Source of the DNA: Bdellovibrionales bacterium
GTDB lineage: Bacteria; Bdellovibrionota; Bdellovibrionia; Bdellovibrionales; UBA1609
Length of the DNA: 64,000 bases
Assembly (NCBI GenBank): GCA_965199825.1
Contig: OZ241329.1
Span: 672,001 to 736,000 of the forward strand
Direction of reading: 5' to 3'
Both the position numbers and the translations under genes were made by a program. Shown here piece by piece: positions 21,581-58,245 of the stretch; position 1 is the stretch's first letter; each line of letters begins with the position of its first letter. A model generated the notes under the pieces. It ran no database searches and was not told the origin of the DNA. It saw only the letters and a list, made by a program, of their open reading frames with translations.

Positions 21581-21618
21581 TAAAAATAAAGGGCGAAAGC
21601 TTTTAAGCCCTCGCCCTT
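21581..21618 (-). terminator. Intrinsic terminator of rnpB
   Basis: AAGGGCGA...TCGCCCTT stem followed by a T-rich tract on the minus strand. Confidence 0.75.
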
Positions 21619-21620
21619 AA

Positions 21621-30403: not shown

Positions 30404-31054
30404 ATGATCATTTTTATTTTATTGAGTTTTATGTGCTTAAAAAGTTTTGCAGGCGATTTTAAACTTACGATGCGTGACCAACGTCGGATCACTTTTGAAT
30501 ACAACGATGATTACTCACTCACGCCGTATGCCAAAAATAGACTGAGAAATTTTGCTGTGGTTGACCCTTTATTAGAAAATGACATCGCAATTATTTTTAG
30601 CGTTTTTTATAACACCCAAGTGATCGAGAGCAAATTTAAAGATTTACCTCTGACCACAATCGATTTTTTAAATGGACGAATCAATTTATTACCGGCCCAT
30701 TTTTCAGACTACATCAAATCAACTTTAGCATCGGTGCAGCGACTTCGTTATCCAGAAAATCAGAAAGAACTTTCAAGATTCGTTCGTCAGTATCTGTCGC
30801 TAAAATTTGATTCACTCTCGAAGACCGCGTTGATTAGACCTCTTACCAATTCGCTTGCTTCGAGAGCTTCAGCTCGCCTGTTAAATTACTATTCGAATTC
30901 TTTATTTTGGCAAGTGCTCCAAGCGAATCTTAAAATGGGCTATCCAAATCAGGTAACGGATCCGACACAAGTCAGATCTTTGATTGAACAGCTGTTTAAG
31001 ATCGACCAACCTTCGGACTCAGTGGATTGTATGCGCCTGTTGGGGTCAGCTTAG
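30404..31054 (+). CDS. Secreted ORFan, paralog of 40919..41584
   Basis: Signal ..KSFA; shared RR, AV.DP, L.[RK]PLTN, FW..L motifs; C-terminal CMRLL. Confidence 0.7.
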   Translation: MIIFILLSFMCLKSFAGDFKLTMRDQRRITFEYNDDYSLTPYAKNRLRNFAVVDPLLENDIAIIFSVFYNTQVIESKFKDLPLTTIDFLNGRINLLPAHFSDYIKSTLASVQRLRYPENQKELSRFVRQYLSLKFDSLSKTALIRPLTNSLASRASARLLNYYSNSLFWQVLQANLKMGYPNQVTDPTQVRSLIEQLFKIDQPSDSVDCMRLLGSA

Positions 31055-34839: not shown

Positions 34840-36222
34840 ATGCAAAATATTTTTTTTATTTTTATTTTATGCAGTTCCTTCAGCTTTGCGGCTGATAACG
34901 GAAGCGGGACATCGCCCTTCACACCACAAGAAATCAAACAACGAGATCAAATCTTAAATCAAAAAAAAATTGCTTTCGTGATTGGCGGTGGTGGTGAGCC
35001 AGCAGGAGATAAAACGTTATTCGACACATCACTTCAAAATACTCTGCGCGCGCTCAAGGAAAGTAGCTATACCACTTTAGCAAGTTTTAATGGGGGCCAC
35101 GCCAACACCGAAGCTATTTTAAACAATCAATTGCCCTCAGAGTTTTCAACCTTTACCAATCAAAATGTGTTGAGTCAGATTCATATTCTTGAATCTGTTA
35201 TACAAAAAAATCAGCTTGCTTCGGGTGCTCAGTTGATTATTTTTATAAATGGCCATGGATTTCCAAAAGCCGATTCGGATTTGTCTCACCAAATAGCAAC
35301 TGACGAAACTCCAAATAAAAATTTCCCGGTCGATGCGCTCACAAATCTGCAGGCTTTGGCCAAGAGCAAAAAAATCAAACTCGCCATCATAGATCAAGGT
35401 TGTTATTCGGGAGCTACCCAAGTGCTTGCAGACGACAACACCTGCGTCATCTCGGCAGCTTCGGCAACAACTGTTGCATATTCCGATTTTGGTCAAAAAT
35501 TTGGCCAAGCGATGAAACCCGGAAAATCTTTAGAAGATGTTTTTCTCGAAACCCGGCGTGATTTAAAGCAACCAGGTCTGCCCGAAATAAGCACTCCTGC
35601 AGGAGAAGCCGCCATAAATTCAGTGAGCCAACTTCAGATCAATCTAGAGTCTTATGTTGGTGATGTTAAAAAACAATGTGATCCAATGAACCAAACTCAG
35701 TTGAGCAAAAATATTTCGGCGGTGATGGCTGCGGTTCAAACTGAAGTTCCAATGTCGAGACTCGAATCCTTCACACTTAAACGTCAATTTGAAATCAATC
35801 TTGCTTCTTACCAAAAAGCCCATCAAGAGGCGATCGAGCTTGCAAATTTTGCCGAAGAAGAAATTAAATTAGATCAACTTGAAGTGAGTCACCGTGATCT
35901 AGCCGAACTCGAATCACTTGTAAGGTTGGCAAAAAATAAGATCAATAAACTGGAGAAACCTGAGAGCAATTATTTCGCCTCCATCGTTGCTGGAGAAGAT
36001 CGTTTAAGAGCCGAGCGCAGTCGACTAATCGAAAACGATCCAAAATTTAAAAATTATGTTGAAAAAACTAAGAGCGATCCATTTCATCTCTCGCAAGTCG
36101 ATCAGAAGTTGTATGATCTTGCATCACAAATTTCTCCGACAGAACGCAAAATCTACGACATCGAATATCGAAACAATCTTAAAAAAGAAAGCAAATCCGC
36201 ATGCTCCGATTTTATACTTTAG
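34840..36222 (+). CDS. Secreted clan CD (caspase/legumain-like) cysteine peptidase
   Basis: IFINGHG (His) and IIDQGCYSG (Cys) dyad; signal ..SFA. Confidence 0.7.
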   Translation: MQNIFFIFILCSSFSFAADNGSGTSPFTPQEIKQRDQILNQKKIAFVIGGGGEPAGDKTLFDTSLQNTLRALKESSYTTLASFNGGHANTEAILNNQLPSEFSTFTNQNVLSQIHILESVIQKNQLASGAQLIIFINGHGFPKADSDLSHQIATDETPNKNFPVDALTNLQALAKSKKIKLAIIDQGCYSGATQVLADDNTCVISAASATTVAYSDFGQKFGQAMKPGKSLEDVFLETRRDLKQPGLPEISTPAGEAAINSVSQLQINLESYVGDVKKQCDPMNQTQLSKNISAVMAAVQTEVPMSRLESFTLKRQFEINLASYQKAHQEAIELANFAEEEIKLDQLEVSHRDLAELESLVRLAKNKINKLEKPESNYFASIVAGEDRLRAERSRLIENDPKFKNYVEKTKSDPFHLSQVDQKLYDLASQISPTERKIYDIEYRNNLKKESKSACSDFIL

Positions 36223-36527
36223 TTATTTTTTTACTCCTCCATTCCGTCGCCTTCGCAACCGAAAAATATCGAGTGGTCGGACAACTCAAAAAAGGATCAC
36301 AGATTGTCGTTTTTGAAAAAACAATAAGTGAAAGAACTCTCGAAATCGTTTTTCCAAAAAACGTAAAGCGCGGAAAGCTCATGGCCGCGGCACAAATACT
36401 TTCGAATTCGACCGTCGAAGCTCTGGGCACGATCCATCAGCAATCTCTTGAGATCGAATCTCTTAAAAAAGGAGTTCCTGATCCTTTGCATGCCGGCAAT
36501 GGTTCGGGGATGTGGAAGGTGAAGTAG
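36201..36527 (+). CDS. Small secreted hypothetical protein
   Basis: Signal ..SVAFA. Confidence 0.6.
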   Translation: MLRFYTLVIFLLLHSVAFATEKYRVVGQLKKGSQIVVFEKTISERTLEIVFPKNVKRGKLMAAAQILSNSTVEALGTIHQQSLEIESLKKGVPDPLHAGNGSGMWKVK

Positions 36528-36622
36528 GCTCGCATAGAGTAAAAATTTCGACTTAATCTATAAAGCGTCTAAAAAGGATCTAAATTAAGGTGATTCCGCA
36601 GCCTCAATGGTAAGTGTGAACA

Positions 36623-37348
36623 ATGGTATTCATTAAAGTTCTCCTTTTGACCTTTTCATTTTCTTTTGTCCAAGCACAAACTCTCACGAAGGAACAGTGG
36701 CGTGGATTTTTAATTCACACCTACCCACAACTTAATCAATCGATTGATGATTTAAAAATCAATATGGATTTTGTTTCGAAAGCGATTGCCCAGTATAAAA
36801 TTTTGTCTCAAGCCAAATTGGTGAGCGACTCAAAAATTGCATCTCTAGCGAAGCGAGTTCGGGGTGAGAAAGATTTAGAAGCCGAAGTTGTCAAAACCGC
36901 TTTTAATGTTGGAGCAATATACCTTGCAGAGCTAACTGACCCTTCGGTTTTGCCATTGACTCCCATTCAAAATATGATGGTACAGGACATAATTGAAACT
37001 GTGGAGCGGCCAGCAAACCTCCATTTTTCGGAGAAGGAAACTGCGGCATTCTTAAATAGTCCATTAGGCACATTTATGTATCTGTTTCAAACGCTCTTAG
37101 CGGTCTCGCTGACCGATGAACAGTTGGACCGCGTCTCAGAAAACTTGAAGTTTGCCATTCGTGAACTCATGCCGGCACATAATCTGTATTTTGAGCGATG
37201 CAAGCTTGTTTTAGAAAAGGAAACCGCGGCTCAATTGACTTTTACCGGTAGTATGAATTTTCAACTTTTGGGTCAAGTTATGAAAAACCGACGGGAACAA
37301 GTTAGACCTCAGGTAAACGCCTTTTTAAAATCAGTCGAAAATAAATAG
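36623..37348 (+). CDS. Secreted helical hypothetical protein
   Basis: Signal ..FVQA; 241 aa. Confidence 0.7.
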   Translation: MVFIKVLLLTFSFSFVQAQTLTKEQWRGFLIHTYPQLNQSIDDLKINMDFVSKAIAQYKILSQAKLVSDSKIASLAKRVRGEKDLEAEVVKTAFNVGAIYLAELTDPSVLPLTPIQNMMVQDIIETVERPANLHFSEKETAAFLNSPLGTFMYLFQTLLAVSLTDEQLDRVSENLKFAIRELMPAHNLYFERCKLVLEKETAAQLTFTGSMNFQLLGQVMKNRREQVRPQVNAFLKSVENK

Positions 37349-37475
37349 TAACTACTTATTGCACGTAATTTAAAATCATTGCTTTTTCATTGGGCAGTAG
37401 ACCCCTATTTTAAGGTTACTTCGTTACATTCTGAGCAGCTTGAAGATTTAGTTGCTGGACAACCAATTTCATCTA

Positions 37476-38471
37476 CTACTTTGTCGGGGGCCAGCTTAAA
37501 TGTTTCAAAGCGTCGTCTAAGCCGAGCTTATGATTCTGATATTTCGGAATAATATCAGAGAGCGGAACGCCTAGGTCTTGAAAAATTCCAACCAAATTCT
37601 GAGTGACTTGGTCTTTCAAATCCTCTGTCAAAGCCCTTTGCTTCATGAGTCGTTGAGTAAATTCGGTTCCATAACGTTGTTCTAAGAGATCGACTACTAA
37701 TTTTGAATTTCCAGTCAGAACCGCCTCTTGAAAAATCTTAAAAATCTCAAAATAATTTTTGTGCTGAGCTTGCGCAAGATCTGAAATTATTTTGTCGATC
37801 AAAGTGACTTCATAATGTCCTAAAAAAAATCGAAACCCAGCTATGCTTTTCAGAGATTGGCATCGAGGCCAATAATATTTATTTATAAATAGCTCTGTTA
37901 AAGAGGTTATTCCTTCGTTCAAAGCCTGACCAACTATCTCCAATTTGTTTTTGGAAAATTTTAATCCCGTACTCCCACTAATAAATTGGTTATCCCAATG
38001 ATCCAGTACAGTTACCGAATCTTGTACCGAATGAATCATCTCATGCAGCAAAACATTGTATCGGTATTCAATTGTTTCAGACCAAAGGACATCGGTCCAA
38101 CCCGTTCGAGAATGATAGCGTCCATCAAAATTAGCATCAATAGGCAGCAAAAATCTTGTACTTTCAAAACCACTGAGCCTGCGTGCGAAATCAAAGTTCA
38201 AATCTTTGCCAAATTCGATCAGACTTTTTTCGATGGCCTTTATTTTCTTTATGTCACTCCATGAAGGAGTGACAAGTTTTGCACGCTCTTTAATAGACAA
38301 GATTTTAAAACCCAATAATTTTTTGCATTTTGGGATAGCGATATCGATATAGCGATCTTTGCCAAAGGTCTTATAATTAATTCGATTAGGCCCAAGCACC
38401 CGGAGCGGCTCTGCAAAGCTTTTAGTGCCTGCTAAGCCGAATACTAAAAATAGAATAAAGAATTGGATCAC
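37476..38471 (-). CDS. Secreted zinc metallopeptidase-like protein (HExxH), paralog 1
   Basis: VLLHEMIH and downstream ALNEG (gluzincin-like third ligand). Confidence 0.75.
   Translation of the reverse strand: MIQFFILFLVFGLAGTKSFAEPLRVLGPNRINYKTFGKDRYIDIAIPKCKKLLGFKILSIKERAKLVTPSWSDIKKIKAIEKSLIEFGKDLNFDFARRLSGFESTRFLLPIDANFDGRYHSRTGWTDVLWSETIEYRYNVLLHEMIHSVQDSVTVLDHWDNQFISGSTGLKFSKNKLEIVGQALNEGITSLTELFINKYYWPRCQSLKSIAGFRFFLGHYEVTLIDKIISDLAQAQHKNYFEIFKIFQEAVLTGNSKLVVDLLEQRYGTEFTQRLMKQRALTEDLKDQVTQNLVGIFQDLGVPLSDIIPKYQNHKLGLDDALKHLSWPPTK
37486..37541. repeat. 56-bp direct repeat, copy 1 (pair with 38563..38618)
   Basis: GGGGGCCAGCTTAAATGTTTCAAAGC[G/A]TCGTCTAAGCCGAGCTTATGATTCTGATA, 55/56 identical. 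Confidence 0.95.
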
Positions 38472-38543
38472 TTTAGACCACTACCTTTGGGCTTTGCATG
38501 AACTTCATCGATTTACATTGCAATTATTAAGCCCCTCAGTCCT

Positions 38544-39506
38544 TTACTTTGACTCCTTTGCAGGGGGCCAGCTTAAATGTTTCAAAGCATCGTCTAAGCC
38601 GAGCTTATGATTCTGATAGCCTGATTCAATATCTTCTTTTGGAATGTTAAGTTCAAAAGCCAATCGGAATTCAGCATCAGCTTGTTGGTGCATCAGGCGA
38701 TCAACAAAATCTTTTCCATATCGATTTTCTATCAAACTTCGCACCTGACTTGAGTCGCCAATAAGCATCGCTTCAATAAATATATTAAAAATTTCTAAAT
38801 AGTTCTTTTGCTGAGCTTGAGCGATGTCTAAGATGATTTTGTCGACGATTAAGATTTCAGCTCTATTATATGAAATACGTGAGCCCGCAATATTTTTTAG
38901 CGATGCAACCCGAGTCCAATAGTGCGTGCTAATAAATGTCTCGGTCAAACCTGTAAGCCCCTCGTGCAACAGTTCACCAAATTTTTCTAAATCTTTTGCG
39001 ATGGTCATTAGGCCCAGGACTGCACCTATAAATTCATGATTTCGGCCATCTATTACGATCACAGATTTTTGTACCGAATGAATCATTTCGTGGAGCAAGA
39101 CTAAGTATCGAAAACTGAGCGCCTCAGACCAAAGAGCATAAATCCAACCATCTTCAGGAGTATACACACCCGGATTTTCGGGATCGCATTCACGCAAAAA
39201 TTTTATGCTTTTAAGACCGTTGAGTCGGCGCGAGAAATCAAAATTTAAATCATTACCAAACTCAATGAGGCTTGCTTCGATGGCCTTAATCTTTTCGGTT
39301 TCATCAGATGTTGGTGCTGTTAATTTTGCCCGCTCTTCATCAGTTAATAAGAGTTCGTTACACTTGGGAATCTTGATATCAACAAACTCGTTTTTGCCTA
39401 AAGTCTTGATTTGGAAGCAATTGGGCTCAAGCAAGCGCAGTGGCCGCGCAAAGCTCGATGAAGCCACTAGGGTTATTATCAACAGTATGAGTCTCGATCG
39501 AATCAC
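38544..39506 (-). CDS. Secreted zinc metallopeptidase-like protein (HExxH), paralog 2
   Basis: VLLHEMIHSVQ, LLHEG; colinear with 37476..38471. Confidence 0.75.
   Translation of the reverse strand: MIRSRLILLIITLVASSSFARPLRLLEPNCFQIKTLGKNEFVDIKIPKCNELLLTDEERAKLTAPTSDETEKIKAIEASLIEFGNDLNFDFSRRLNGLKSIKFLRECDPENPGVYTPEDGWIYALWSEALSFRYLVLLHEMIHSVQKSVIVIDGRNHEFIGAVLGLMTIAKDLEKFGELLHEGLTGLTETFISTHYWTRVASLKNIAGSRISYNRAEILIVDKIILDIAQAQQKNYLEIFNIFIEAMLIGDSSQVRSLIENRYGKDFVDRLMHQQADAEFRLAFELNIPKEDIESGYQNHKLGLDDALKHLSWPPAKESK
38563..38618. repeat. 56-bp direct repeat, copy 2
   Basis: Direct alignment to 37486..37541. Confidence 0.95.
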
Positions 39507-39598
39507 GACAGCGCTTTATCCTTAAAAATGTATTTTGGCTCAAATGATTTTGCAAAATAGAAGCCTTTAAATAACGGCAAAAGGCCCTTGAGGCACAA

Positions 39599-40666
39599 TC
39601 AAATTTTGGTCTTGAGCAAATTCTCGCATTGATCATAACGCCTAAGATTTCGGCTGTAGTGACTCTCACTCATTGCGATTTCGAGCAGTTTTAAAGAGGA
39701 AAGAATTTGTGGGATTTTGTATTCCCTTTCGAGATGATTTTCATTCAGTAAATTTTTTTTAAGAACTTCGAATTCGTTTTTGATCACTGTCGCAATTGCT
39801 GCAAAATCTCCGGCCATGGGATCGACTTCGATATTTGCTTGCATAAAAACTCGACTATTCACCAGTCGATTAAGAGGTATTAGCAGGGTTTTCGCCTGTA
39901 AAACAATTTGAAGTTTATCAAACAGAAGTTCCTGTGAAAATCCATTCCGGGCCAGCAACAAAATGTTGATAAACAAAACTTGAAATACGGTTTCTTCTTT
40001 AAAACAGGTTTCGATATTCTTCATTAATTGGGCCACCCTCTGATAAAACAAATTTTGGTTATACCAAATCTTTTCTTGAATCATCGAGCCATTTAAAAAA
40101 TAAAGATAAAGCGCCGTCGCTTTGGGCTCAATGTAAGAATTTTTAAGGAGCAAAGTCAAAAAATCATCCTCGATGGCTTTGCTCAAAACTTGCAAATTAA
40201 TCTGATCATTTTTATTTATGTTTTCAAGAAGTTCGAGAATCCAATTCGTCTGAGCTTCACTCCATGAGTAAATAAAGGGGTATTCCACATGGATATCTGG
40301 AGAAATAAGATTGAATAGGATGGCCCTAAAAATATCAGAACGGTCTCGTAGACGACGCAAAGGATGGGATTCCAGCGGTGATTGATCCGGCCCATCAGAA
40401 TATTTTAAATCAAAAAATTCAAACAGATTTCCAGGATCATCATCAACCAGCGAAATGGTTTTAAATGAATCAAATCGACGTCGCATAAAAACAAACTTTT
40501 TTTCTACTGAATCTAGAGATTCGTAACCAAGCAACAAAACTTTTAAAATGATCCGCTTTGCCTCTATGGACAATTCTGCAGCTTTTTCAAAACGCGGCGA
40601 ATAGACTGACTGGGCATTCACAAAACAAGATCCTGCTAGTAACAGCCATAAATAAATATAACCCAC
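39599..40666 (-). CDS. Secreted helical ORFan, paralog of 43199..44236
   Basis: Shared LKVL..G, P.NLF.F, LYF, F.EE.V, LNR motifs; C-terminal CENLL. Confidence 0.7.
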   Translation of the reverse strand: MGYIYLWLLLAGSCFVNAQSVYSPRFEKAAELSIEAKRIILKVLLLGYESLDSVEKKFVFMRRRFDSFKTISLVDDDPGNLFEFFDLKYSDGPDQSPLESHPLRRLRDRSDIFRAILFNLISPDIHVEYPFIYSWSEAQTNWILELLENINKNDQINLQVLSKAIEDDFLTLLLKNSYIEPKATALYLYFLNGSMIQEKIWYNQNLFYQRVAQLMKNIETCFKEETVFQVLFINILLLARNGFSQELLFDKLQIVLQAKTLLIPLNRLVNSRVFMQANIEVDPMAGDFAAIATVIKNEFEVLKKNLLNENHLEREYKIPQILSSLKLLEIAMSESHYSRNLRRYDQCENLLKTKI

Positions 40667-40918
40667 AACTTTTCCTCACCAAATTGATAGGGGGTGCTTT
40701 ACCAAATAAAACAAATTTGTACACATTTTTATTCCGAACGCGATTACTAGATTATCGTCGCCTTTTCAGATTACTTCAAAAAGACTGCTTACTGTTTAAA
40801 CCAATTTCATTTTGAATTTGAGGTGGGCCAATCATTCATACGGCTGGTGTGTCGATAGGCATTAAAAGAATTTACAACTCTCTTGATCAAGATAACTTTG
40901 AACTGTAAGCGACTAGCT

Positions 40919-41584
40919 ATGCTAATAAAAATTTCTTTAATTTTTTGTGTTTATCTAACCCCTGGTTTTGCAAAAGAGGTGACTCTCTCAACAAACGAAG
41001 GGCGTCGTTTTCAAATCCACCTCGGTGAGAGTTATCAGTGGTTGAGTGGAGATAAGATTAAAAACCAAATCCCCGCGGTATTGGACCCTTTTTTTGAAAT
41101 TGAGTTGGTGGCGATCGAGAGAATATTAGCATTGACTGGGCAAGTGCACTTTCGGGTCAGAACTCTGCCGATAAGTGTTTTAAGAGATCCCGAATATATC
41201 GTCTACGTCGCAATTGAGATGGCCGATTATATTAACCAAACCATTGAACTCTCAAGAAGGCTGATTTCGGTTCAAAATCGAATTGCGATGATGACGCTAG
41301 TTTTAGACTTTTTGAGTGATCAATTTGAAATCATCGATCGACCACTGGTCAAACCACTCACCAACGGCTTTATTGCAAATTATCATGCCTCTCAAACCGA
41401 CAAATATGTGCGCAGGAAATTTTGGGCAAGTTTGTCAAAAAGTCTGGGGTTTATTGATCCTAAAATTTTTAAAAGCAATAGGTCAGACAAGTTTGTTTTG
41501 ATGCTGAGACAGATTTACAATCCTTACGGCCTTTTTTTTGGGAAGCCGTCTGGATGTCAGCTGCAATTGAGTCTAAAACCTTAA
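40919..41584 (+). CDS. Secreted ORFan, paralog of 30404..31054
   Basis: Signal ..PGFA; motif similarity; C-terminal GCQLQL. Confidence 0.7.
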   Translation: MLIKISLIFCVYLTPGFAKEVTLSTNEGRRFQIHLGESYQWLSGDKIKNQIPAVLDPFFEIELVAIERILALTGQVHFRVRTLPISVLRDPEYIVYVAIEMADYINQTIELSRRLISVQNRIAMMTLVLDFLSDQFEIIDRPLVKPLTNGFIANYHASQTDKYVRRKFWASLSKSLGFIDPKIFKSNRSDKFVLMLRQIYNPYGLFFGKPSGCQLQLSLKP

Positions 41585-41817
41585 TTTGAAGAACCAACTT
41601 CTGATCCTATTTAAATTATTTTAATAGACCAGCATAAAACGGCCATGAGCAATAGCGTCACTCAGGCCTCCAACCAATACCCAATAGGGCGAGTCGAGTG
41701 GCGATTTTGACTCCAAAGTAATGGGTTTCGCCAAAAAATTAAAATGATTTTATCTGATGATCTTGGATCGAATTTTTTTATTTACAGCACCCGCTGAGTT
41801 GTTATTGAAGTATCCAA

Positions 41818-42627
41818 ATGCTTTTGCTGATCCTTATTTTTCAGATTTCGATTTTTGCAGAAGATTTTTGCGCTTCGCTGAACAACACTTTTGGTACGAT
41901 CAAAACTTCCACTCAGTTTGAGCGCATTCCAATCCAGCCTTATATTCAAAACCGAAGTTTTGATGACTACGATTTGTTTTCTCAGAGACAACTCTCGAAA
42001 GTTTTAAAACAAAAACCTGAGCCGATCTGGCTCGATGCAGGCTCCGGAACCGGCACTGCGCTTAGGCAACATCTCGAGCAAAATAAAAATTCAAAAGCGA
42101 TTGGAATCATCCGCGAAAGTCCACTGCGCCCCTTTGATTGGTATAGCTTTTCAGAAAGAGAGCGACTCAAGTGGTTTCAAGGTTGGAAAATTGAAGACAT
42201 CGCGAATGCTGAAATCGGTGAGGTGGACATCATCACAGATATTCTTGGCCCATTTGTTTACAGCAGTGAGCATCCTGATCGTATTCTTAAAAAGTATTTG
42301 CAACTGCTGAGACCGGGCGGGCATTTGTTTCTTGCACTTCAAAATAGAAGCATCGTGATCGATCACGAAGTCGAATTCACTATAGCAAGATGGTTGCAAC
42401 ATCAAGTGGATTGGAAGAACTCAAAAGTCGAAGTTCATTATGGCTTCAATATGATCGGGACAATTGTGCCAACGATGTTCATTGTGGAATTAAGTGAAGA
42501 GTCTCGTTCGATTCATATTCCTAGCTTAAAAAAGAAGAATCATATCGCCAAGACTTTGTTCCCGCCTGCCGTGGTGTATGAAGTCCAACGCTCATTCATT
42601 CAGGGTCCTGTGCAAATGGGTCACTGA
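41818..42627 (+). CDS. Class I SAM methyltransferase fold with a signal peptide
   Basis: WLDAGSGTG motif I, DIITD, LLRPGGHL; N-terminal MLLLILIFQISIFA. Confidence 0.75.
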   Translation: MLLLILIFQISIFAEDFCASLNNTFGTIKTSTQFERIPIQPYIQNRSFDDYDLFSQRQLSKVLKQKPEPIWLDAGSGTGTALRQHLEQNKNSKAIGIIRESPLRPFDWYSFSERERLKWFQGWKIEDIANAEIGEVDIITDILGPFVYSSEHPDRILKKYLQLLRPGGHLFLALQNRSIVIDHEVEFTIARWLQHQVDWKNSKVEVHYGFNMIGTIVPTMFIVELSEESRSIHIPSLKKKNHIAKTLFPPAVVYEVQRSFIQGPVQMGH

Positions 42628-42761
42628 AGATTATTTCACTTACGAGCTAGAAATAATTATAAGACAGATTCAAAAAATTCGGTTTTTCATTAAATAAATC
42701 CAGTTCATGATAGAAATCAACTTTCAAGCTCTTACGCTAAATTTGATCCTTAAAAAGGAGA

Positions 42762-43061
42762 GTGAATATGAAATCTATCGCGTCCCTCACTGTTGCATTT
42801 GTTTTATTGACGAGCGGGACTGTGTTCGCAGAATCAGTTTCAGAATGCCGGCCAAAGTTCGCAATTGCGATAGAACGCGCAACTAAAAATTGCGCAGTTT
42901 GGGGTTGTCACGGCATCATCGCAACAACTGCTGAGGTTATCGCTCAAGGTATTAACAATCCGAGCGAGATAATAGCTGAAGTTAAAAAACGAGAGGGCAA
43001 AAACTATTATTCTGAAGGCCCGCTTTTATTGATGGCAGAACTCGGTCTAATTAAATTCTAG
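42762..43061 (+). CDS. Small secreted protein
   Basis: AAGGAG RBS, signal ..TVFA. Confidence 0.7.
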   Translation: MNMKSIASLTVAFVLLTSGTVFAESVSECRPKFAIAIERATKNCAVWGCHGIIATTAEVIAQGINNPSEIIAEVKKREGKNYYSEGPLLLMAELGLIKF

Positions 43062-43198
43062 GAAAATAGTAATTTTGTAAAGGATCGAAACTTCTTCCGT
43101 GTTCGAATGTGTTTTCAAAATTCCCTATTGTTGCCATCATAACTTTAAGAAGATTTGCAGATCTTTTATCTTTCCGATACGACAGCAAAGAGGTGCAG

Positions 43199-44236
43199 AT
43201 GCTTAATTTTTTATTCAGTTTTTTGGTTGTCAGTCCATGTGCACAGGCAAGCAGCGTTTATGAGTATCTTGTGCACGATGCGGCAGAAGTTGCTGAACCC
43301 ACACGGATGACATTGCTCAAGGTTCTTTTTAAAGGATTGGGTCAGCTGACCGAAGAAGAGCTCAAAACAATTGTGGTCAAAGAAACTAATGGCAAGTTTC
43401 AAATTTCACCTCTTAGTGAAGAAAGCCCACAAAACTTATTTACGTTCAGTGAGCCTCTTCAAGGACATCCTCTCACTGAGCTCGATGATCACGATTGGTA
43501 TTTACGACAGAGCATCACCCAAGGGCTTTTTTTAAATGAGCTCCTTAAAGACGTCAAAAAAAATCCAAGCTGGAATGCAGAGAAGGCTGCTGTACTGTCA
43601 CAGCTGATCGATCATGCTGCAGAAACCGAACTTGCTCGGCTGAAAGCATTAGATTTTATAAACCGAAGCTTTTTTTATCGTGTATTGTCCGATGAATCTC
43701 CCGTGCATCTTTCGGCTTATCGGCTTTATTTTCGATTGCTGGTGAGCGGTCTGATTGAAGGATATGAAGCCAACACTGGACGCATCATAACATCGATTAA
43801 TTCTTCAAATTTAAACAATGACTTTAAAGCGATCACGCCCATTTTTGATGAAGAGCGTGTGATCGCATTTTTGACCGTTACGGCTATGGCCATTCTTTAT
43901 AGCGGAATTGAGCCTGTTTCTTTATTCCTCCATCCAAACATGAAATCTTTTGAAATAGCTAAAAATGCTCAAGGCCTTGCAGTGATTTTGAATCGAATTT
44001 TTATAAGTAAACAACTTTCGGTTTCAGCACACCCGAAATCCCTCTTCAAAAAGTTCAGGCAGTATATAGATTTTGTTTTGCAGAATAAACCTGATGATGC
44101 CTATTCTGATTTTGAAATATCAAAACAACTCCTCACTCTCACGAGAGACCTTCGTGCAACCCTAATGGCCACCCCCTTTGCTCAATCCATTATTGAACCC
44201 TGCACTGTTTATTTAAGTCCGAAAGTGAAGCTGTAA
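43199..44236 (+). CDS. Secreted helical ORFan, paralog of 39599..40666
   Basis: GAGG RBS, signal ..CAQA; 3' end duplicated at 45596. Confidence 0.75.
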   Translation: MLNFLFSFLVVSPCAQASSVYEYLVHDAAEVAEPTRMTLLKVLFKGLGQLTEEELKTIVVKETNGKFQISPLSEESPQNLFTFSEPLQGHPLTELDDHDWYLRQSITQGLFLNELLKDVKKNPSWNAEKAAVLSQLIDHAAETELARLKALDFINRSFFYRVLSDESPVHLSAYRLYFRLLVSGLIEGYEANTGRIITSINSSNLNNDFKAITPIFDEERVIAFLTVTAMAILYSGIEPVSLFLHPNMKSFEIAKNAQGLAVILNRIFISKQLSVSAHPKSLFKKFRQYIDFVLQNKPDDAYSDFEISKQLLTLTRDLRATLMATPFAQSIIEPCTVYLSPKVKL

Positions 44237-44263
44237 GTCTTTGGTGATTCTATTGCTACGAAC
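44113..44263. repeat. About 150-bp imperfect direct repeat, copy 1 (3' end of 43199..44236)
   Basis: Aligns to 45596..45746, e.g. TCCTCACTCTCAC, CCCCTTTGCTCAATCCATTA, AAAGTGAAG.TGTAAGT, ACGAAC. Confidence 0.92.
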
Positions 44264-44370
44264 TTGACTTGGCCTCATCGTATTTCTGATTCAGAACAAA
44301 AATTAAATATAAAAGATCATTCCGCCCTTGATCGAAGACTTTTTGGAAATCTAACTTACGCGAAAATTAC
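44246..44370 (+). pseudogene. Orphan 3' fragment of a paralog of 47475..48026
   Basis: Translates DSIATNLTWPHRISDSEQKLNIKDHSALDRRLFGNLTYAKI versus DPVATHFTSPSRISDSEEKLDMNDDATLDRRLFGDPTYARL. Confidence 0.9.
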
Positions 44371-44426
44371 GAAGTGTGTGTCTTCCTACTCATAGGTACT
44401 GAACCAATTCGAGGATTCGATCGACT

Positions 44427-45430
44427 TTAGAAAAGTGGAATAGATGAACTACCATTTGTAGTGGGCCATGATGCAAATGTCAGCGGCGTTGCAATCTGAG
44501 CGGGTGAGGTTGTAAAAGTTGTTGCTGTGCCCGCCGCTGAGCGAATGCAGGTTGTGACTGGACCCGAGCAATCAATTCCCGACGCTGTCCAATAGAGGGT
44601 TGAATCTCTCACGTCCAGCCATGCATGATCCACACTTGAAGTAGCATTCGGAGCCAAGATTACAGCTACTGGAGTCTGCCAAGAGCCAGAAAAAGTCGAA
44701 CTCCAAAAGCTTTTTAAATTGGCACTCGAACATGTTGATCCATTCGATACATTTCTACTTGAAGTAAAAATAAGTTGAGAGCCGCTACTATCAAACATCG
44801 GGTTGTCGTCGTTACAGCTTGTTGAGTTTTGCACAAACGAAGATGGAACTGAAAATGAGTTATCGGCTGTTCGTTGAGTCAAATATATATTTCCATTTCC
44901 AGAGGATTTTTCATATTTCACAAAGGCCGTTATTGGAGTGGAGCTTGCCATCTTTAATGCGGCTAAACTTACAGTCTGAGAACCGTTCAAATTTAAATTT
45001 GTGAGTGTCCATGCAGACCCTGTTATAATACCGCGATAAATATTAAAATTTCCTGTTATACCTGGAGAGTTTTGGGTGACAAAACTGGGGGTCGGGGCAC
45101 AACTTCCATTATAGGTTAAACTCCCATTGTTTAAAGCTGTCCAATCAATCGAACTCACTCCAAAAAACAATTCACTCCCCGTCCAATACTGTGAATCTAT
45201 CCAGCACCCTTGGGGATTCATATTGCTTGGGAGCAAATAAACAGATTTTCCGGTCAACGATCCCGATAGACTCAAGCCTGTAATCTGTGGGCCAACAACA
45301 ATATATGAACTGGACACATTCGAAGTTAAACTGCTGTTGAATTACTACACGCTACAACCATTAGAGCTATTACAGCGATAAATAAGCGAAACATTAAAAC
45401 TGTGTAGAAAATGGTTCTGAGATTTAACAT
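44427..45430 (-). pseudogene. Frameshifted lipoprotein with a TolB/PD40-like propeller
   Basis: Signal ORF 45430-45326 (...IALMVVACSNSTAV*) is one base out of frame with the 296 aa body (NPMFDSSGSQLIFTSSR). Confidence 0.7.
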
Positions 45431-45595
45431 ACAAAATCGTAAATAAATTGTATTTTAATCGCAAGACTTCTTTCGTTTAGCACTTCCTAGCCTTACCACC
45501 TCGTCTTCAAGCAGTTCTTGAACCTCCATTTGGAGGCGACACTTTTGAAAGAAAAAATGGAAACGGAGCTTGCAGATGCACGACCGATCCAATCC

Positions 45596-45746
45596 TGAAA
45601 TAGCAAAACAAATCCTCACTCTCACAGAAAGACCCTCGTGCAACCCTGATGGCGAACCCCTTTGCTCAATCCATTAATGAACCCTACGATGCCTATTTAA
45701 TTCCAAAAGTGAAGTTGTAAGTGCTTGATATTTTCACATCACGAAC
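45596..45746. repeat. About 150-bp repeat, copy 2; decayed 3' end of a 43199..44236 paralog
   Basis: Direct alignment to 44113..44263 with one indel. Confidence 0.92.
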
Positions 45747-45795
45747 GGACCGATCGCTTCTTGAAAATCTGAGAGCAGTTGTGTAACCAACAGAA

Positions 45796-47292
45796 ATGAA
45801 AAACATTATTTTTTTTGTTTTAATTTTTTGTCCTTTGCTTTCGCAAGCCACCATCAAGGCCAATCGCCGAACCGTTTTAGGCTCAGGCCCGGTCAGTTTT
45901 TTGATGGGACTTTTTCAACCTCAAGCACCCGCGGCAGATCCGACAAAAATTGTGATTGATGCTGCACAAATATTTCATCCTGACATTCAAGATGCCGATG
46001 GCTCAATCGTTAAAGCACGGACACGAGCCTTTCACCGACTATGGGTGGATTCGCGATCGAGTGATGTTGATCAACTGAGCAATGCCAAAAAATACCAACA
46101 TTTCGGGCCTCTGCAAGCCGATTTGCTTGAAGATTGGCTTGTTACTCATCCTGATGCCGAAATTCAAACACTGCTCGATAAGTACGATCTTATTAAATAT
46201 GCTTTCGCAAATCCAAATTTTATATCTGATGACCCATTGGTCTTCGAGATCCGTCAATCTCCCCGGACTGTGTTTAAATTGCGAGAACGCCTCGAGCGAG
46301 ATTTGGCAAAATATTTTTATGAGCGTATTACTGAAGCTCCATGGAAAAATCTTTCTTGGGCTCAAGTTTTTGGGCCAAAAATTGCTGCAATGGAATTGCG
46401 GCTTGCTTATAAATACAATGTTGGAATGGGCAAAGTGGATCATGCTGTGGAATTTGGAATCAATGGCAATTACAAGATTGATTCACAGATTCGAAGTCTT
46501 GTCTTAGGCCAATTTCAGCCCGAGGATCTTGAGCTTTATAGTTCTCAATTTATTAATGAGTACTACGCGGGTTTAGCAAAAATATCTCCTCGTTTTTTTC
46601 GCCATAGACATGAAAGCCCAGGCTTTCAAAAAAATAATCGTTTCAAAAACGATTGGATAAAAACTGTTCGCAACACAATCGCGAGTGCCCTTCAGGCCGA
46701 ATTTGATGAAAGAGGAGTGCGCAGTTTTGCATTCAATAAATTAGCAAATGGTTTCTATTTATTAAAACAGCATCCTGGAGTCCCTCCCGAATACACCGCC
46801 GCCTATCTTGAATTTTTAAAGGAACTAGAAAATCTGCGAGAGATCCTTTTCCAACTACCCATTTCAGATTTTAAAACAGTCAGCTTAGAACAAGTGGAAT
46901 ATTTAATAAAAATCGCGAGCGAAGAATTGAATACACTTCCGCAACGCCTGGATATTCAGCGAAAAATAAGTGAGGCGCGGGCATCAAGAATATCTTCGAG
47001 CGATTTGGAAAACCACCCTCCGCCAACCTCGCTCGAGTGGCGCACATTTGGATTTTCAAATGCGTCTGAGGCGTTTACAAGCTCGATGAAATGGCTAGAA
47101 ACGGTTCGTGAAACTGGAATGAAGTTGGGGTTAAGTGCAAAAGTTCTAGAAAGCCTGGCGCTGGCTTTGCATGAGCCAGAACCTTGCAACGTCCTCTTAA
47201 TGGAAGCACCCGTTGAAGACATTGCTGAAGACAAAAATGAGAGACAAGGAGCAGCTGTTATTGCTGGAAATGTATCTCCAACAATCAATTGA
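45796..47292 (+). CDS. Secreted ORFan with an RR motif after the signal peptide; likely distant paralog of 49461..50930
   Basis: Signal ..LSQA, then NRRTVL; INEYYAGLAKI resembles IEDYFVGLDKV; CNVLL near the end. Confidence 0.7.
   Translation: MKNIIFFVLIFCPLLSQATIKANRRTVLGSGPVSFLMGLFQPQAPAADPTKIVIDAAQIFHPDIQDADGSIVKARTRAFHRLWVDSRSSDVDQLSNAKKYQHFGPLQADLLEDWLVTHPDAEIQTLLDKYDLIKYAFANPNFISDDPLVFEIRQSPRTVFKLRERLERDLAKYFYERITEAPWKNLSWAQVFGPKIAAMELRLAYKYNVGMGKVDHAVEFGINGNYKIDSQIRSLVLGQFQPEDLELYSSQFINEYYAGLAKISPRFFRHRHESPGFQKNNRFKNDWIKTVRNTIASALQAEFDERGVRSFAFNKLANGFYLLKQHPGVPPEYTAAYLEFLKELENLREILFQLPISDFKTVSLEQVEYLIKIASEELNTLPQRLDIQRKISEARASRISSSDLENHPPPTSLEWRTFGFSNASEAFTSSMKWLETVRETGMKLGLSAKVLESLALALHEPEPCNVLLMEAPVEDIAEDKNERQGAAVIAGNVSPTIN
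47221..47284. repeat. 64-bp direct repeat, copy 1 (pair with 48036..48099)
   Basis: ATTGCTGAAGA.AAAAAT.AGAGACAAGGAGCAGC.GT.ATTGCTGGAAATG.ATCTCC.ACAA, 58/64 identical by manual alignment. Confidence 0.95.
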
Positions 47293-47474
47293 ATGTCTGG
47301 ATTGTGTTCAAATTCTTTCACCACAAATATAGTAGTAACAACTAACCCCACCCTTCAATGGCATCTCGATGGCTCAAATTTGTGAACGGAACAAAAGAAT
47401 TTCATGCCATAGCCATTTAAAACACAAAGACCGACGCATAGTCTTTGCATCATAGACGAGAGGATTCTTAACTT

Positions 47475-48026
47475 TTGGAGATTAAATTGAAATCAATTAT
47501 TCTTATGTGCCTCTTAACAATGGGCATCGGTGCTACTGCACAATCATCTGATGTAGAAATGATCACAAAAGGTGACCTGATTTTCGATATCGGCACTCTA
47601 GATGCGGGCTCGGTTCCAGGTTATGTCACTGGAAAACCGCCACAGTTTTTATTTGAGATCAAATTAACGGGCTCGAATGGAAATCATGATTTTAAGGAAA
47701 TAACATTAAGATCTCTTCGACTTGGGAGTGTACCAACGGGCGAGAAAAAGAACTTGAACAGAGAAATTCGAATTGATAAAAATGAAATTAAACAAGTTAT
47801 AGCCAAAGAATTATCTGGCTTTGATTCGTCACTCATCATTCATATTTGGCTACGACGCATCGGTTACGTAATGAATGATCCTGTTGCTACACACTTTACT
47901 TCTCCTAGTCGTATTTCTGATTCAGAAGAAAAATTAGATATGAATGACGATGCCACCCTTGATCGTAGACTTTTTGGAGATCCAACTTACGCAAGACTTA
48001 GTGTTACGTTAAGAAGAGGCCATTAA
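47475..48026 (+). CDS. Secreted hypothetical protein lying between the 64-bp repeats
   Basis: GAGG RBS, signal ..GATA. Confidence 0.7.
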   Translation: MEIKLKSIILMCLLTMGIGATAQSSDVEMITKGDLIFDIGTLDAGSVPGYVTGKPPQFLFEIKLTGSNGNHDFKEITLRSLRLGSVPTGEKKNLNREIRIDKNEIKQVIAKELSGFDSSLIIHIWLRRIGYVMNDPVATHFTSPSRISDSEEKLDMNDDATLDRRLFGDPTYARLSVTLRRGH

Positions 48027-48035
48027 GACTTAGAG

Positions 48036-48099
48036 ATTGCTGAAGAAAAAAATTAGAGACAAGGAGCAGCGGTCATTGCTGGAAATGCATCTCCGACAA
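48036..48099. repeat. 64-bp direct repeat, copy 2; overlaps the 3' end of the GH26 gene
   Basis: Direct alignment to 47221..47284. Confidence 0.95.
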
Positions 48100-49264
48100 A
48101 TGTCCCGTCGGCGATATATTTCGAAATGCTATCGAGCACCGCAGGCTGAACGCCGCCAGTAAATTGCCACGAGCCATCTCCGGCTTGAATATTCCAAATA
48201 TTCATTCCCAGCATTGGAACACCTTGAGCACGCATCGACTTTATTGAGTCCGCCATAAAATCCCAAAAAGCGGTGTCATTTGAAAGTCCATGACTTGGGC
48301 CATTTGGATTTGGCCCACTCCCGGTTTCGGCAAAGTACATTGGCTTTTTAAGCTTCACGGCGAGAGCGATTTGTTGATCCATTCCCCATCCGTTTGGATT
48401 ATGCCAAAAACCAACTCGAGTTGGAATATCGTTTACATCTCCTCCACCCCAGTAAGAGTTGTACTGATCAGCTCCTAAGATATCCCATAACGAGGGATCT
48501 GGTAGATTAGTGTCAACAGGAAGTGATCCGTTACCCAGTGCAGGATTGTACATCAAATAGGCGACAACTCCTTTTTTAAAAGCTTCGGCGCGAAGAACTT
48601 TTGCGACATGTTCAAAAGCCGCTTTCCATTTGAGTTGTGTGTCGGGATCGCCAGTTTCACCGTCGGGCATAAAATTAAAATTATCTTCGTAGCCGATTCG
48701 AAAAATCGATACTGGAATTTGTGCGTCTGAAACTGCATCGATCATCTCAATCCAAGTGGCATCAAATTTACCGGCAGCAACGTCGACAAAAGCCTGTGGA
48801 TCACCCCACCCATAATTTTGCGGTGCTGTGTTTGCCCAAAAAAGTTTGATTCCAATAACAGGAACAATATTTTTTGCAATTGCAGAACTATGCATCGAAT
48901 CGACCGCACGCTTGAGATTGTAGTACCACCAGTTTTGATCACCGTAGACGGGGAAGACATTGATTGCGGTAATTGGTTTGCCAAGATCGGCCCCCAAACC
49001 CACCACGCCCTGATCCATATCAACATCGTTTCCTGCACCGTAATTCCAAGTTCCCGAGGGACCCGAGGTATACGTTCCCAAAAGGTGAAGATTCGATCCT
49101 GCGGTTAAACATTGAGGTTGTGTAGCTGGTGGTGTGCTTGGAAGTGATGAGCTGAGATTAGCTGGGACTGTGTTCATACTTTTTATTTGCGAACAGTTTT
49201 GATAGGCACATAACACGCACAAGAGGCCGCTGACTTTGATCGACTTCACAATGAATTTGTTCAT
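48053..49264 (-). CDS. Glycoside hydrolase family 26-like lipoprotein
   Basis: AYQNCS signal; FRIGYEDN (acid/base), DILGADQY, KPMYFAETG (nucleophile). Confidence 0.78.
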   Translation of the reverse strand: MNKFIVKSIKVSGLLCVLCAYQNCSQIKSMNTVPANLSSSLPSTPPATQPQCLTAGSNLHLLGTYTSGPSGTWNYGAGNDVDMDQGVVGLGADLGKPITAINVFPVYGDQNWWYYNLKRAVDSMHSSAIAKNIVPVIGIKLFWANTAPQNYGWGDPQAFVDVAAGKFDATWIEMIDAVSDAQIPVSIFRIGYEDNFNFMPDGETGDPDTQLKWKAAFEHVAKVLRAEAFKKGVVAYLMYNPALGNGSLPVDTNLPDPSLWDILGADQYNSYWGGGDVNDIPTRVGFWHNPNGWGMDQQIALAVKLKKPMYFAETGSGPNPNGPSHGLSNDTAFWDFMADSIKSMRAQGVPMLGMNIWNIQAGDGSWQFTGGVQPAVLDSISKYIADGTFVGDAFPAMTAAPCL

Positions 49265-49460
49265 AGTCTCTGATCGGACCAATGACTGGTTGTCTCAATT
49301 CTTTTTGACCTATATTTTTGTTGTGTCTCTTTTTGAGACAACATCTTTTGATCTTGGGTGCGAGGGCCGCTGTCGAGATCTGATATTCCATCCGTTGTTG
49401 AAATATGAGTGCCAAATTTTGTTTATTGACTCTGGTTTTGATCGAAGGCTTTTAACGAGT

Positions 49461-50930
49461 ATGCCACTTTTAATCTACGTTCTGTGTTTTACTTCTCAAG
49501 CCCAAGCGGTCGATTTATCCCGAAGACTGTTCTTAGCACTGAGTACGGTTGCGGTGACTTCACCCTATCTGCCAAAAATTCCTATTGACCTAGAATTCGG
49601 CGAAGATCAGATCGCAACTCAGCTTTCGAATTCTTATTTGTTAAATCAACGCTCTATTTTATTAGGGACTTCTAGCCAGACCAGCGCTGTCCACTTTTCG
49701 AATTTGCTTCAAAAACAAAATGAGATTGCTTTAAACATAGCAAACAAAATTAGTTTTCTCTCAAAAAAATACCATCTTACTCAAGAAAACATTTGGCTTA
49801 ACGTGATGCGGGCCTTTGATCAAGAATGGGGACGCATTGCAAAAATTGAATCAGCATTTGATCCACTGCCTTTAGAAATTCGCCGCGAGTTTTACAACTT
49901 TTGTAGCACGCTGTCGGAGGATCTTAGCCCAACATTTATAAAACATATTTGGTTTTGGTATGATAGCTTCGAATTTGATTTAAATTACGAAGATGAGCAT
50001 GTGTCTACTTTCCATAACTGGCTAGAGGTCGCAGCGTATCAGTGGCAGGATTTTACTTTTGATCACAACTATCGATTAGATGAAAATGAAAGACGCACAC
50101 TTTCACTGAAGGCGGGACAGTACGATCTCGATTTTGCAGCTAAATTGGATTTTCATCCTGCACGTCTCTGGGAAGAGATCGACCGCCGAACCAACCCATG
50201 GAACTACTTACCATACGGCGATAATTATTTGTTGAGCCGTTTTGCACCTTTGGGCGACTCGATTATCGAAGATTATTTTGTAGGCCTTGATAAGGTTTTT
50301 CCAGAGGCGGCTCAAGAAATGCGAATTGAATTTGAGGCCGCAAGAAAGTCTATTCTTCATCCTAGCAATCAATTTGAACATATCGGCCTCAGTTTTACAT
50401 TCGACGTAAAGCCAATTCAGTTTACGATGAAAGGTTTGGCGGCTTTCGAAACTGAAATGCAAAGCCTTGGAATCATCATTCCCTCGCATCCAAATTTAAT
50501 AAATCAAATCGATCCGCAATTTCGAAATATTCTGTATCAGTACTTCTCGGCTAAAAAGAGTTGGGGCTTTGATATGAATCGGTCAGTGCATGAGCAGCTG
50601 GCTGACTCCACCGCTACTCAACGTTCCATCATGCAGAGGCCAGTGATTGATGCCCCGATCGAAAACAAGCGGGCAAACTTATTAGGCGAAACAATACACG
50701 CTCGATTTCATCTGCGGTCTGTTGTGCCAATATTAAAGTCAATTGTACCAAAAATCGGAAATCTCGCTGTCCGCACAAATGAAGTTAATGATTGTATCCA
50801 AATTCTTTCAACATCAGTAATAAATAAAGAGCCTTTGTTGCTTACTCACGAGGTGATAATTCCGGCTGTTGATCCCATTCCTTTGGTAGAGGAGACTGCG
50901 AATCAGTTGTCCACAGAATCAAAAGACTAA
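49461..50930 (+). CDS. Secreted ORFan with an SRRLFL motif after the signal peptide
   Basis: Start trimmed to MPLLIYVLCFTSQAQA; then VDLSRRLFLALSTVAV. Confidence 0.7.
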   Translation: MPLLIYVLCFTSQAQAVDLSRRLFLALSTVAVTSPYLPKIPIDLEFGEDQIATQLSNSYLLNQRSILLGTSSQTSAVHFSNLLQKQNEIALNIANKISFLSKKYHLTQENIWLNVMRAFDQEWGRIAKIESAFDPLPLEIRREFYNFCSTLSEDLSPTFIKHIWFWYDSFEFDLNYEDEHVSTFHNWLEVAAYQWQDFTFDHNYRLDENERRTLSLKAGQYDLDFAAKLDFHPARLWEEIDRRTNPWNYLPYGDNYLLSRFAPLGDSIIEDYFVGLDKVFPEAAQEMRIEFEAARKSILHPSNQFEHIGLSFTFDVKPIQFTMKGLAAFETEMQSLGIIIPSHPNLINQIDPQFRNILYQYFSAKKSWGFDMNRSVHEQLADSTATQRSIMQRPVIDAPIENKRANLLGETIHARFHLRSVVPILKSIVPKIGNLAVRTNEVNDCIQILSTSVINKEPLLLTHEVIIPAVDPIPLVEETANQLSTESKD

Positions 50931-51130
50931 TCAATACCTTCGTTCGCATTAGGATCTGAGGTGTTGCCATTCAATTACTAAAGCGTGATCACATATTTTT
51001 ATGCGATATTGTGTCGCCTTTTATTTATACGTGCAGTTGGATTGCGGAATAGCTTTATATTTCCTACCATCGTTCACTCTTATAAACCTAGATCCTTTTG
51101 AACACGCCCCCTGCCGGGGGCCGAACTTGA

Positions 51131-57701: not shown

Positions 57702-58245
57702 TCGTACCTCTCGTAAATCAAAGACTTTTACCCGATAGTCACCGAAAAATTAACCTTTTAAATATGATGGTTTAACAGATGCTCTCAAGCTCAAGATAAA
57801 TCGTAGATCAGAAGTTGGCTCAATCGTTAAGTGGGTACTTTTTTCTTAACTTACAATTTCAAACCTTTAAAAAATTCGCTGAGATTTTAAAGACCATAAA
57901 TATTTTTAATTTATCTTAATAATGGATTTTTCTCTGAAATTCTTCTTACTCAGAAAGAGAAGTAAACCATTCGTACTTTCCTACAAAAAAGTATATGAAA
58001 TTTTGAATTTATAGTCTGTGGTTAGGGCAATAAAGGCACACTGGACTTTCCTTAGCGTCAGACACCAAATCTAATGGCTTGATTTTTTTATCTCTCCCAG
58101 CTCCACCATCTCAAAAATTAAAAAAGATTTTCAGATCTTTTAATAGATCAAACCTAAGGCTGGGATAAAATATATCCAGTCAACATACCAAGCTAAGGCT
58201 GCAGAATTTAAATTTATGTTATTATAACATGTAAGAGGTGGACTA

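Follow-up and report, generated by a model that had tools for sequence, protein, structure and literature searches.

Single genes between duplicated gene ends in a Bdellovibrionales genome, likely exemplifying insertion with long target duplication

The stretch of 64,000 nucleotides (nt) analysed here, the window, occupies positions 672,001 to 736,000 of contig OZ241329.1 from a Bdellovibrionales bacterium (GenBank assembly GCA_965199825.1). It corresponds to C1:672001-736000, where C1 is the one 2.78-Mb contig of a 2.84-Mb assembly. From about 26 kb onward the window is an island that encodes proteins mostly without a family, as judged from a Pfam scan of 42 window proteins, and with hydrophobic N-termini. 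Within this island, direct repeats of gene ends enclose single genes. We refer to the gene whose 3′ end is repeated as the anchor, to the enclosed gene as the cargo, and to cargo and repeats together as a unit, numbered after its repeat pair. For a conserved C1 protein, almost every one of the best relatives carries the label Bdellovibrionota, in most cases Bdellovibrionales, and identities are 40-58%. A DNA-level search of 40 GTDB relatives found no close relative and none of the same genus, and two metagenome scans using window proteins as queries found no relative.

Three direct-repeat pairs and a fourth, stranded 3′ fragment had been noticed in a preliminary description of the stretch, and all four exist (Table 1). 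Their local alignment scores (114, 165, 101 and 135 for pairs 1, 2, 3 and the fragment) lie far beyond the maximum of 29-33 reached in 200 shuffles each. Several details of that description change. Pair 2, put at about 150 bp, is a repeat of about 129 nt, the final ~20 nt (to 44263/45746) aligning weakly. A single unrelated gene lies within each of pairs 2 and 3, whereas the genes flanking pair 1 are whole-length paralogues. Not every repeat consists of the last codons of one gene: pair 3 crosses a tail-to-tail junction, with 47 of its 68 nt coming from the minus-strand gene of 409 amino acids (aa). The stranded fragment is present; relative to the 183-aa gene it breaks off 26 nt before the stop codon, and its place is within unit 2, upstream of the intact partner. 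The four pairs are not equivalent. The units are single-copy in the genome and, as had been stated, lack terminal inverted repeats of the kind found in insertion sequences (IS) or miniature inverted-repeat transposable elements (MITE).

Table 1. Repeats, genes and other features of the window and of contig C1 (window positions unless marked C1)
Feature	Position	Strand	Details
Pair 1	37475-37541/38552-38618		67 nt, 94% identical, spacing 1077
Pair 2	44113-44241/45596-45726		~129 nt, 87% identical, 1-nt indel, spacing 1483
Pair 3	47217-47284/48032-48099		68 nt, 90% identical, spacing 815
Fourth pair (stranded fragment)	44245-44369/47876-48000		125 nt, 82% identical
Unit-2 anchor gene	43109..44236	+	345-375 aa, no family, distant paralogue of 39599-40666
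Pair 2 proximal copy	44113..44241	+	intact anchor 3′ end
Stranded fragment	44245..44369	+	from relative of 183-aa gene (82% to 47876-48000), inside unit 2
Unit-2 cargo	44427..45430	-	tail-to-tail with anchor
Pair 2 distal copy	45596..45726	+	orphan gene end, 1-nt insertion, 11 amino-acid-changing differences
498-aa gene	45796..47292	+	no family; last 25 codons pass through pair-3 left copy
Pair 3 left copy	47217..47284	.	TTAG, the right copy's overlapping-stop word, is TGAG here
Unit-3 cargo	47475..48026	+	183-aa protein, no family, hydrophobic N-terminus; present in X3 strain too
Pair 3 right copy	48032..48099	.	409-aa gene end plus 21 nt of orphan 498-aa gene end
409-aa gene	48053..49282	-	
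Paralogue A	37476..38471	-	331 aa, HExxH motif, downstream member of tandem pair
Paralogue B	38544..39506	-	320 aa, 51% identical to A
Pair 1, copy in A	37475..37541	-	last 67 nt of A
Pair 1, copy in B	38552..38618	-	matching 3′ part of B
Outside event, heptosyltransferase-like anchor	C1 511417/512368		
Outside event, 356-aa anchor	C1 659891/661410		
Outside event, PgeF-like anchor	C1 873479/875043		
RNA-gene repeats	C1 36261/37678, 168189/169823, 1422908-1424511, 2209375/2213582		
Lone tyrosine recombinase catalytic domain	C1 2381348-2381875		175 aa, among housekeeping-type genes
GGGCACGA array examples	C1 751476-751769, 808905-809784, 1202449-1202929, 1355528-1356003, 1576078-1576486		
Proteins with C-terminal Cys motif	30404-31054, 34840-36222, 39599-40666		
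RNase P RNA gene	21618-21965	-	sole Rfam match in window

Unit 2 reads, in order, anchor end, stranded fragment, convergent cargo gene and orphan anchor end. The 345-aa anchor protein found no homologue except itself among 2605 candidates. In the cargo, a 296-aa frame spans 44427-45317, and a predicted lipoprotein signal peptide (about 45326-45430; signal peptides in window proteins were assigned by eye) sits in another frame. By its reading frames, the cargo gene is likely a frameshifted pseudogene.

Unit 3 likely preserves a trace of its site before insertion. In the right copy of pair 3 the stop codons of the 498-aa gene and the 409-aa gene overlap; the left copy has lost that stop, and the 498-aa frame continues for 18 codons more. 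Because the right copy holds both overlapping stops, the two genes likely abutted in the ancestral site. For the 183-aa cargo, the ESM Atlas returned unnamed clusters only, and the 409-aa gene had no match among 60 other family genomes searched.

Pair 1 is likely a separate and ordinary case, namely a tract of gene conversion or unequal crossover between tandem paralogues. Over 781 nt the paralogues are 64% identical. Their last 67 nt are 94% identical and contain identical runs of 29 and 26 bases, against 59% and a longest run of 18 in the gene body, which is the short high-identity tract in a diverged alignment that gene conversion leaves. No further homologue of either was found among 3078 candidates scored. 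Both proteins have HEMIH and, about 40 residues further on, an EG motif, and may be exported zinc peptidases.

Variation at the locus was followed in contigs, rather than reads, from further samples. X1 (possibly the source sample) and X2 are two samples of one study, X3 comes from another study and represents a related strain, and X4 holds next to none of the region. In the contigs of X1 and X2 no joint skips any unit, bearing in mind that contigs drop rare variants. A 20.7-kb contig of X3 has an empty site for unit 2: it passes from 44229 to 45724 without the 1494 nt that separate them, 9 other letters stand at the joint, and the flanks are about 95% identical. The stranded fragment is likewise absent from the place of unit 2, its sole match in the contig being the intact 183-aa gene. 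Unit 3 shows no empty site in X3, which carries it within one continuous piece (46629-49894, 143 differences) with both repeat copies. X3 is without cover across most of 35268-42875, and provides no usable cover of pair 1.

The empty allele is embedded in unusually divergent sequence. Upstream of 43952, X3 differs at 39 of 712 nt, compared with 36 of 278 nt from 43952 to the joint (Fisher p=1.5e-4), and just past the distal copy divergence is about 20%. Because divergence is 11-20% in the tract around unit 2, with differences still more closely spaced in a patch of 40 nt, and about 5% elsewhere, divergent alleles appear to have been exchanged at this site; on the same figures, unit 2 seems to sit in an exchanged or fast-evolving tract. 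Further along in X3, the last 79 nt of a 564-aa gene (50853-50931, to the stop) sit 12.8 kb downstream of an alignment break at 50605, which is also where the alignment of a paralogue at C1 2.459 Mb ends. Either a C-terminal tip that was displaced or the end of a paralogue may account for it.

By the preliminary description, equal abundance of such repeats in core DNA would tell against its reading, and a genome-wide count came out that way. For 2405 genes of at least 100 aa, as called here, segments of 60 nt from the start, the middle, the three-quarter point and the end were aligned to 6 kb on either side and both strands, and paralogue hits were removed. Gene ends repeated downstream on the same strand, with a score of at least 40, were found for 10 genes, against 4 hits in the other 15 cells combined, 2 of which are the stranded fragment. 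Three rows that enclose no gene and one between fibre-like neighbours were set aside, and two rows are the same event, leaving five distinct events in 2.78 Mb that enclose one unrelated gene: units 2 and 3, and three loci outside the window. Three of the five lie at housekeeping-type genes. Repeats measure 68 and about 129 nt in the window and 34-157 nt at the outside loci, and copies are 81-94% identical. In three other family genomes, of which 1.6 Mb was sampled, one clear event appeared, in a genome of another genus (G042). Its 170-nt repeat, 94% identical, runs across a tail-to-tail junction and encloses a 385-aa protein matching PADLOC PDC-S01. No event was found among 300 and 297 gene ends in G049 and G003, respectively. 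The pattern is special neither to this island nor to exported cargo. Nor is the idea that the cargo consists of effectors supported.

Relatives provide the uninterrupted state of two outside loci. The 356-aa gene is present in 34 of 40 family genomes and pgeF in 28 of 40. At the 356-aa locus, the gene lying behind the orphan copy turns up after the anchor in 11 of 19 family loci, as far as the fetched sequence reaches. At pgeF, one and the same small gene comes next in 16 of 19 family loci, with the insert in 0/19. Across 80 further Bdellovibrionales loci, the 356-aa anchor and a SelO-like gene are at most 400 nt apart in 38 and separated by more than that in 19; 15 loci show no linkage and 8 could not be assessed. 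Neither the insert nor a duplicated end nor an att-like repeat occurs in any of these 80 loci. Because relatives keep the genes adjacent without insert, the inserts at the 356-aa and pgeF loci are the derived state. A site with a single repeat copy in a relative is found for unit 2 and, by synteny, at these two core loci, which bears out the earlier suggestion that units are gained and lost.

Two kinds of repeat resemble these events in part. Diverged direct repeats at or just behind the genes for tRNA-Leu, tRNA-Glu, tmRNA and tRNA-Asp enclose one to three small genes, among them an HNH gene and what we take by likeness to be a toxin-antitoxin pair; no PF00589 gene is nearby. In the window, the 3′ region of a trypsin-like gene (58246-59301) has an orphan copy immediately upstream of the gene itself (58058-58170, against 59167-59284). 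This copy, at about 80% identity and a spacing of 1112, is likely a relic of a replaced paralogue.

No enzyme accompanies the units. Neither integrase nor transposase was found in or beside them in the Pfam scan of 42 window proteins, and all recombinase and transposase genes of the genome map outside the window, as previously stated. An orphan recombinase or reverse transcriptase elsewhere in the genome had also been envisaged. Genome profile searches found no serine recombinase and no IS110 transposase, and the only reverse transcriptase of the assembly is on an unrelated contig, C2, with none chromosomal. Three tyrosine recombinases (PF00589) are encoded, none near the window or any unit. 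Two, of about 300 aa and among housekeeping-type genes, look like XerC/D by size, motif and context, and the third is a lone catalytic domain of 175 aa. The small contigs C2-C5 were considered as circle intermediates on account of their head-to-tail repeats, and rejected: they have nothing in common with C1 and look eukaryotic. They are probably eukaryotic contamination of the bin, C2 bearing a retrotransposon-like reverse transcriptase. The claim that no attC-like site is shared also stands, in that each unit has repeats of its own and no common motif was seen when 11 junction sets were inspected by eye, with no attC model run.

Several known systems produce one-gene units or displaced gene ends. 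Integron gene cassettes are one-gene units with a shared attC and an integron integrase; the present units are likewise single genes in an accessory region, but have no shared attC and no integron integrase, bring their own upstream region and occur in either orientation. Integrase islands differ in that no integrase lies beside either repeat copy here. Minimal mobile elements of Neisseria are strain-specific cargo between conserved genes, exchanged by homologous recombination, and are not known to require a duplicated gene end; the gap between the 356-aa and SelO-like genes, filled in 19 of 57 loci, is comparable. In arrays of Rhs and type VI secretion system (T6SS) effectors and immunity genes, homology-anchored incoming DNA similarly displaces an older 3′ end, which is left downstream as an orphan (PMC5361080). 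In those arrays the new tip is non-homologous and an immunity gene accompanies it, whereas here the ends are homologous, the cargo is a separate gene and no toxin-immunity pairing is seen.

The closest match is insertion with long target duplication, reportedly treated by Nobusato et al. in 2000. It leaves long, variable direct repeats around DNA, single genes included, with no other mobile element (Furuta, Abe and Kobayashi 2010, PMC2853133). The repeats in Table 3a of that paper measure 25-423 bp at 86-100% identity, and in many cases cross a start or a stop codon, which leaves the target whole. The mechanism has been recognised for DNAs besides restriction-modification genes (PMC3457768). 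The present units agree in having one or few genes between variable direct repeats, no other mobile element and an empty site in a relative. Their repeats exceed about 30 bp and vary in length, their inserts are below 20 kb, and integrase and transposase are lacking. They differ in cargo, for which the window yielded no restriction-modification match in PADLOC, Pfam or NCBIfam, and in repeat identity, which falls to 81%. The cases described in that literature concern restriction-modification cargo in mostly naturally competent species (PMC2853133), whereas here the proteins are mostly family-less and probably exported, and ComEC was not found. The feature is real and of a known kind, likely matching insertion with long target duplication and not a novel cassette system; the window has the geometry of this class and extends its cargo range.

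So far, descriptions of the class have dealt chiefly with restriction-modification genes. The same scar around unrelated cargo, beside housekeeping-type as well as accessory genes and in a predator with no ComEC found, argues that the cargo's own nuclease is not needed. The discovery is nevertheless modest, consisting of a known geometry, few old events and no enzyme identified. A literature search for target duplication in Bdellovibrio returned no report, most subscription journals being outside its coverage, and searches on Bdellovibrio competence and end-joining capture returned nothing relevant among the matches listed.

We lean, with moderate confidence, towards the view that the units are old scars of donor DNA that shared a gene end and was captured by one crossover, without a dedicated recombinase. 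A DNA fragment of a related lineage, comprising an anchor 3′ end, a cargo gene and its promoter region, would enter the cell. After trimming it would be re-joined, closing into a circle or fusing with the chromosome at a non-homologous end, for which Ku and LigD are encoded (as is DprA). One homologous crossover, placed within the 35-170 nt that the two have in common, would then yield an intact anchor followed by the cargo and, past the cargo, a spare gene end, and selection would retain events that span the stop codon, because nothing is broken. The spare end would decay, and before decay a crossover between the copies could delete the unit. Filled and empty alleles might then pass between strains by ordinary allelic exchange. 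The repeats and their decay, the empty alleles, the derived nature of two inserts and the inventory of recombinases are observed, whereas everything said of the DNA intermediate is what we infer.

Several observations are consistent with capture by a crossover in a shared gene end. Among them are the empty unit-2 allele, the excess of gene ends repeated downstream, the derived state of the inserts at the 356-aa and pgeF loci, the want of a common junction motif, the exchange of divergent alleles at the unit-2 site and the presence of Ku and LigD. In 4/4 events with a single repeated gene end, the repeat stops 0-5 nt past the stop codon, which fits donor homology ending there. Most differences between the copies at the heptosyltransferase-like locus are silent (proportion of silent sites that differ, pS, 0.41; of non-silent sites, pN, 0.11), an excess expected of two once-functional alleles. 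In E. coli conjugation, gene-end duplication arose in 56 of 60 clones and measured 109-950 bp in the 14 sequenced, and the authors of that study ascribe it to a single crossover of trimmed, re-circularised donor DNA (PMC3240628). The single crossover in a gene end that the preliminary description had in mind is thus a plausible route. Both settings, like homology-facilitated illegitimate recombination in general, show foreign DNA flanked by a partial gene-end duplication and no site-specific enzyme (PMC3240628). The present duplications differ from those of the plasmid assay in being natural, shorter and diverged. The events look old and sporadic, because distal copies have decayed and one cargo gene is frameshifted.

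Other findings weigh against this account. A repeat of 35-70 nt is short for a RecA crossover, and ComEC was not found by two profiles. At the seven readable diagnostic sites of pair 2, X3 has the proximal state at four, the distal at one and neither at two (the listed alignment lacks 8 of the 36 differences, which lie close to its ends, and those of the final ~35 nt of the repeat). The empty unit-2 allele could equally be a deletion in X3, two alleles alone fitting both directions. Pooled over four orphan-type events, pN/pS is 0.53 (16 silent and 28 non-silent differences), a value that duplication in place followed by decay would equally produce. Finally, the gap between the 356-aa and SelO-like genes is enlarged in 19/57 informative loci, none with a duplicated end, so most insertions at that site leave no lasting scar.

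It is possible, though rather unlikely, that the target was duplicated in place. While a break in the chromosome was being repaired, foreign DNA would have been joined in and 35-170 nt of resident sequence copied on both sides, making both copies resident and initially identical. The pooled pN/pS is what this predicts, as is the near-neutral pattern in the youngest event (G042, 94%), and X3 mostly matches the intact copy. The repeat crosses the junction of two convergent genes in two events, and Ku/LigD, 26 HNH genes and 17 Y1 transposase-like genes are possible sources of breaks. Furuta et al. suggested double-strand breakage for restriction-modification cargo (PMC2853133). The silent-site excess at the heptosyltransferase-like locus and the repeats that finish at stop codons in 4/4 single-gene-end events are harder to reconcile with it, and the tested chromosomal cargo proteins had no match to a defence-system or nuclease profile.

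A more sweeping proposal, that predators without ComEC routinely gain exported-protein genes as one-gene circles docking in shared gene ends, the circles being closed by Ku/LigD or cut by the 175-aa tyrosine recombinase and the island being a hotspot of ongoing swaps, seems to us improbable.

About as improbable is the reduction of integrase-driven islands to one gene, with the repeats as attL and attR and a regenerated gene end. Regenerated target genes of such islands do have the same geometry, similar repeats lie behind tRNA-Leu, tRNA-Glu, tRNA-Asp and tmRNA, and the 175-aa tyrosine recombinase is encoded. Five unrelated protein-gene targets would, however, require five integrase specificities. 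No unit was seen to contain an integrase remnant, the two full-length recombinases look like XerC/D, and the 80 relatives' loci of the 356-aa/SelO-like site are without any att-like repeat.

Very improbable, too, is the dedicated cassette-turnover system of the preliminary description, which would excise one-gene circles and re-integrate them at gene ends. Two clean events and a fragment do lie within 4 kb, units amount to about one gene plus promoter, and an empty allele exists. The cargo is also tail-to-tail with its anchor in 4/4 unambiguous events, against 32-39% convergent downstream neighbours in the background (p about 0.01-0.02, after the fact). Tight tail-to-tail packing is nonetheless the genome norm, and tight abutment of cargo and anchor stop codons was discarded as a special feature (median gap -4 nt). 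There is no shared site and no dedicated enzyme was found, only five events occur in 2.78 Mb, and the copies are decayed, at 81-94% identity. With one of two window cargos frameshifted, no unit-skipping joint in X1/X2 contigs, paralogues at pair 1 and a geometry already named (PMC2853133), neither a dedicated or new system nor active turnover is supported.

An artefact of mixed-strain assembly, conceivable for a probably metagenomic assembly with unrelated small contigs, is largely refuted, because a single X1 short-read contig crosses 34000-53000 unchanged (0 differences, 0 gaps) and X2 contigs cover all 30 bins of the region with 1 listed difference; moreover, the copies differ by 6-19%, and X3 carries unit 3 with both copies.

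The genome also contains repeats of another kind. The motif GGGCACGA occurs 522 times in C1, often in intergenic tandem arrays with units of 16-20 nt, beside the 17 divergent Y1 transposase-like genes and the 26-member HNH family. Arrays and genes together have the appearance of a mobile repeat system like that of repetitive extragenic palindromic (REP) sequences. A link to the units was considered and dropped: the motif occurs twice in window positions 1-64000 and in neither unit, and although two of the three outside loci have HNH genes nearby, the genome contains 26 of them. A further feature of the proteome is a C-terminal Cys-x2-3-(L/I/F)(L/I/F), which ends 57 of 2499 proteins, against 17 mid-protein occurrences. 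These proteins are mostly family-less with hydrophobic N-termini, three of them in the window, and the motif is possibly an export or disulfide-anchoring signal.

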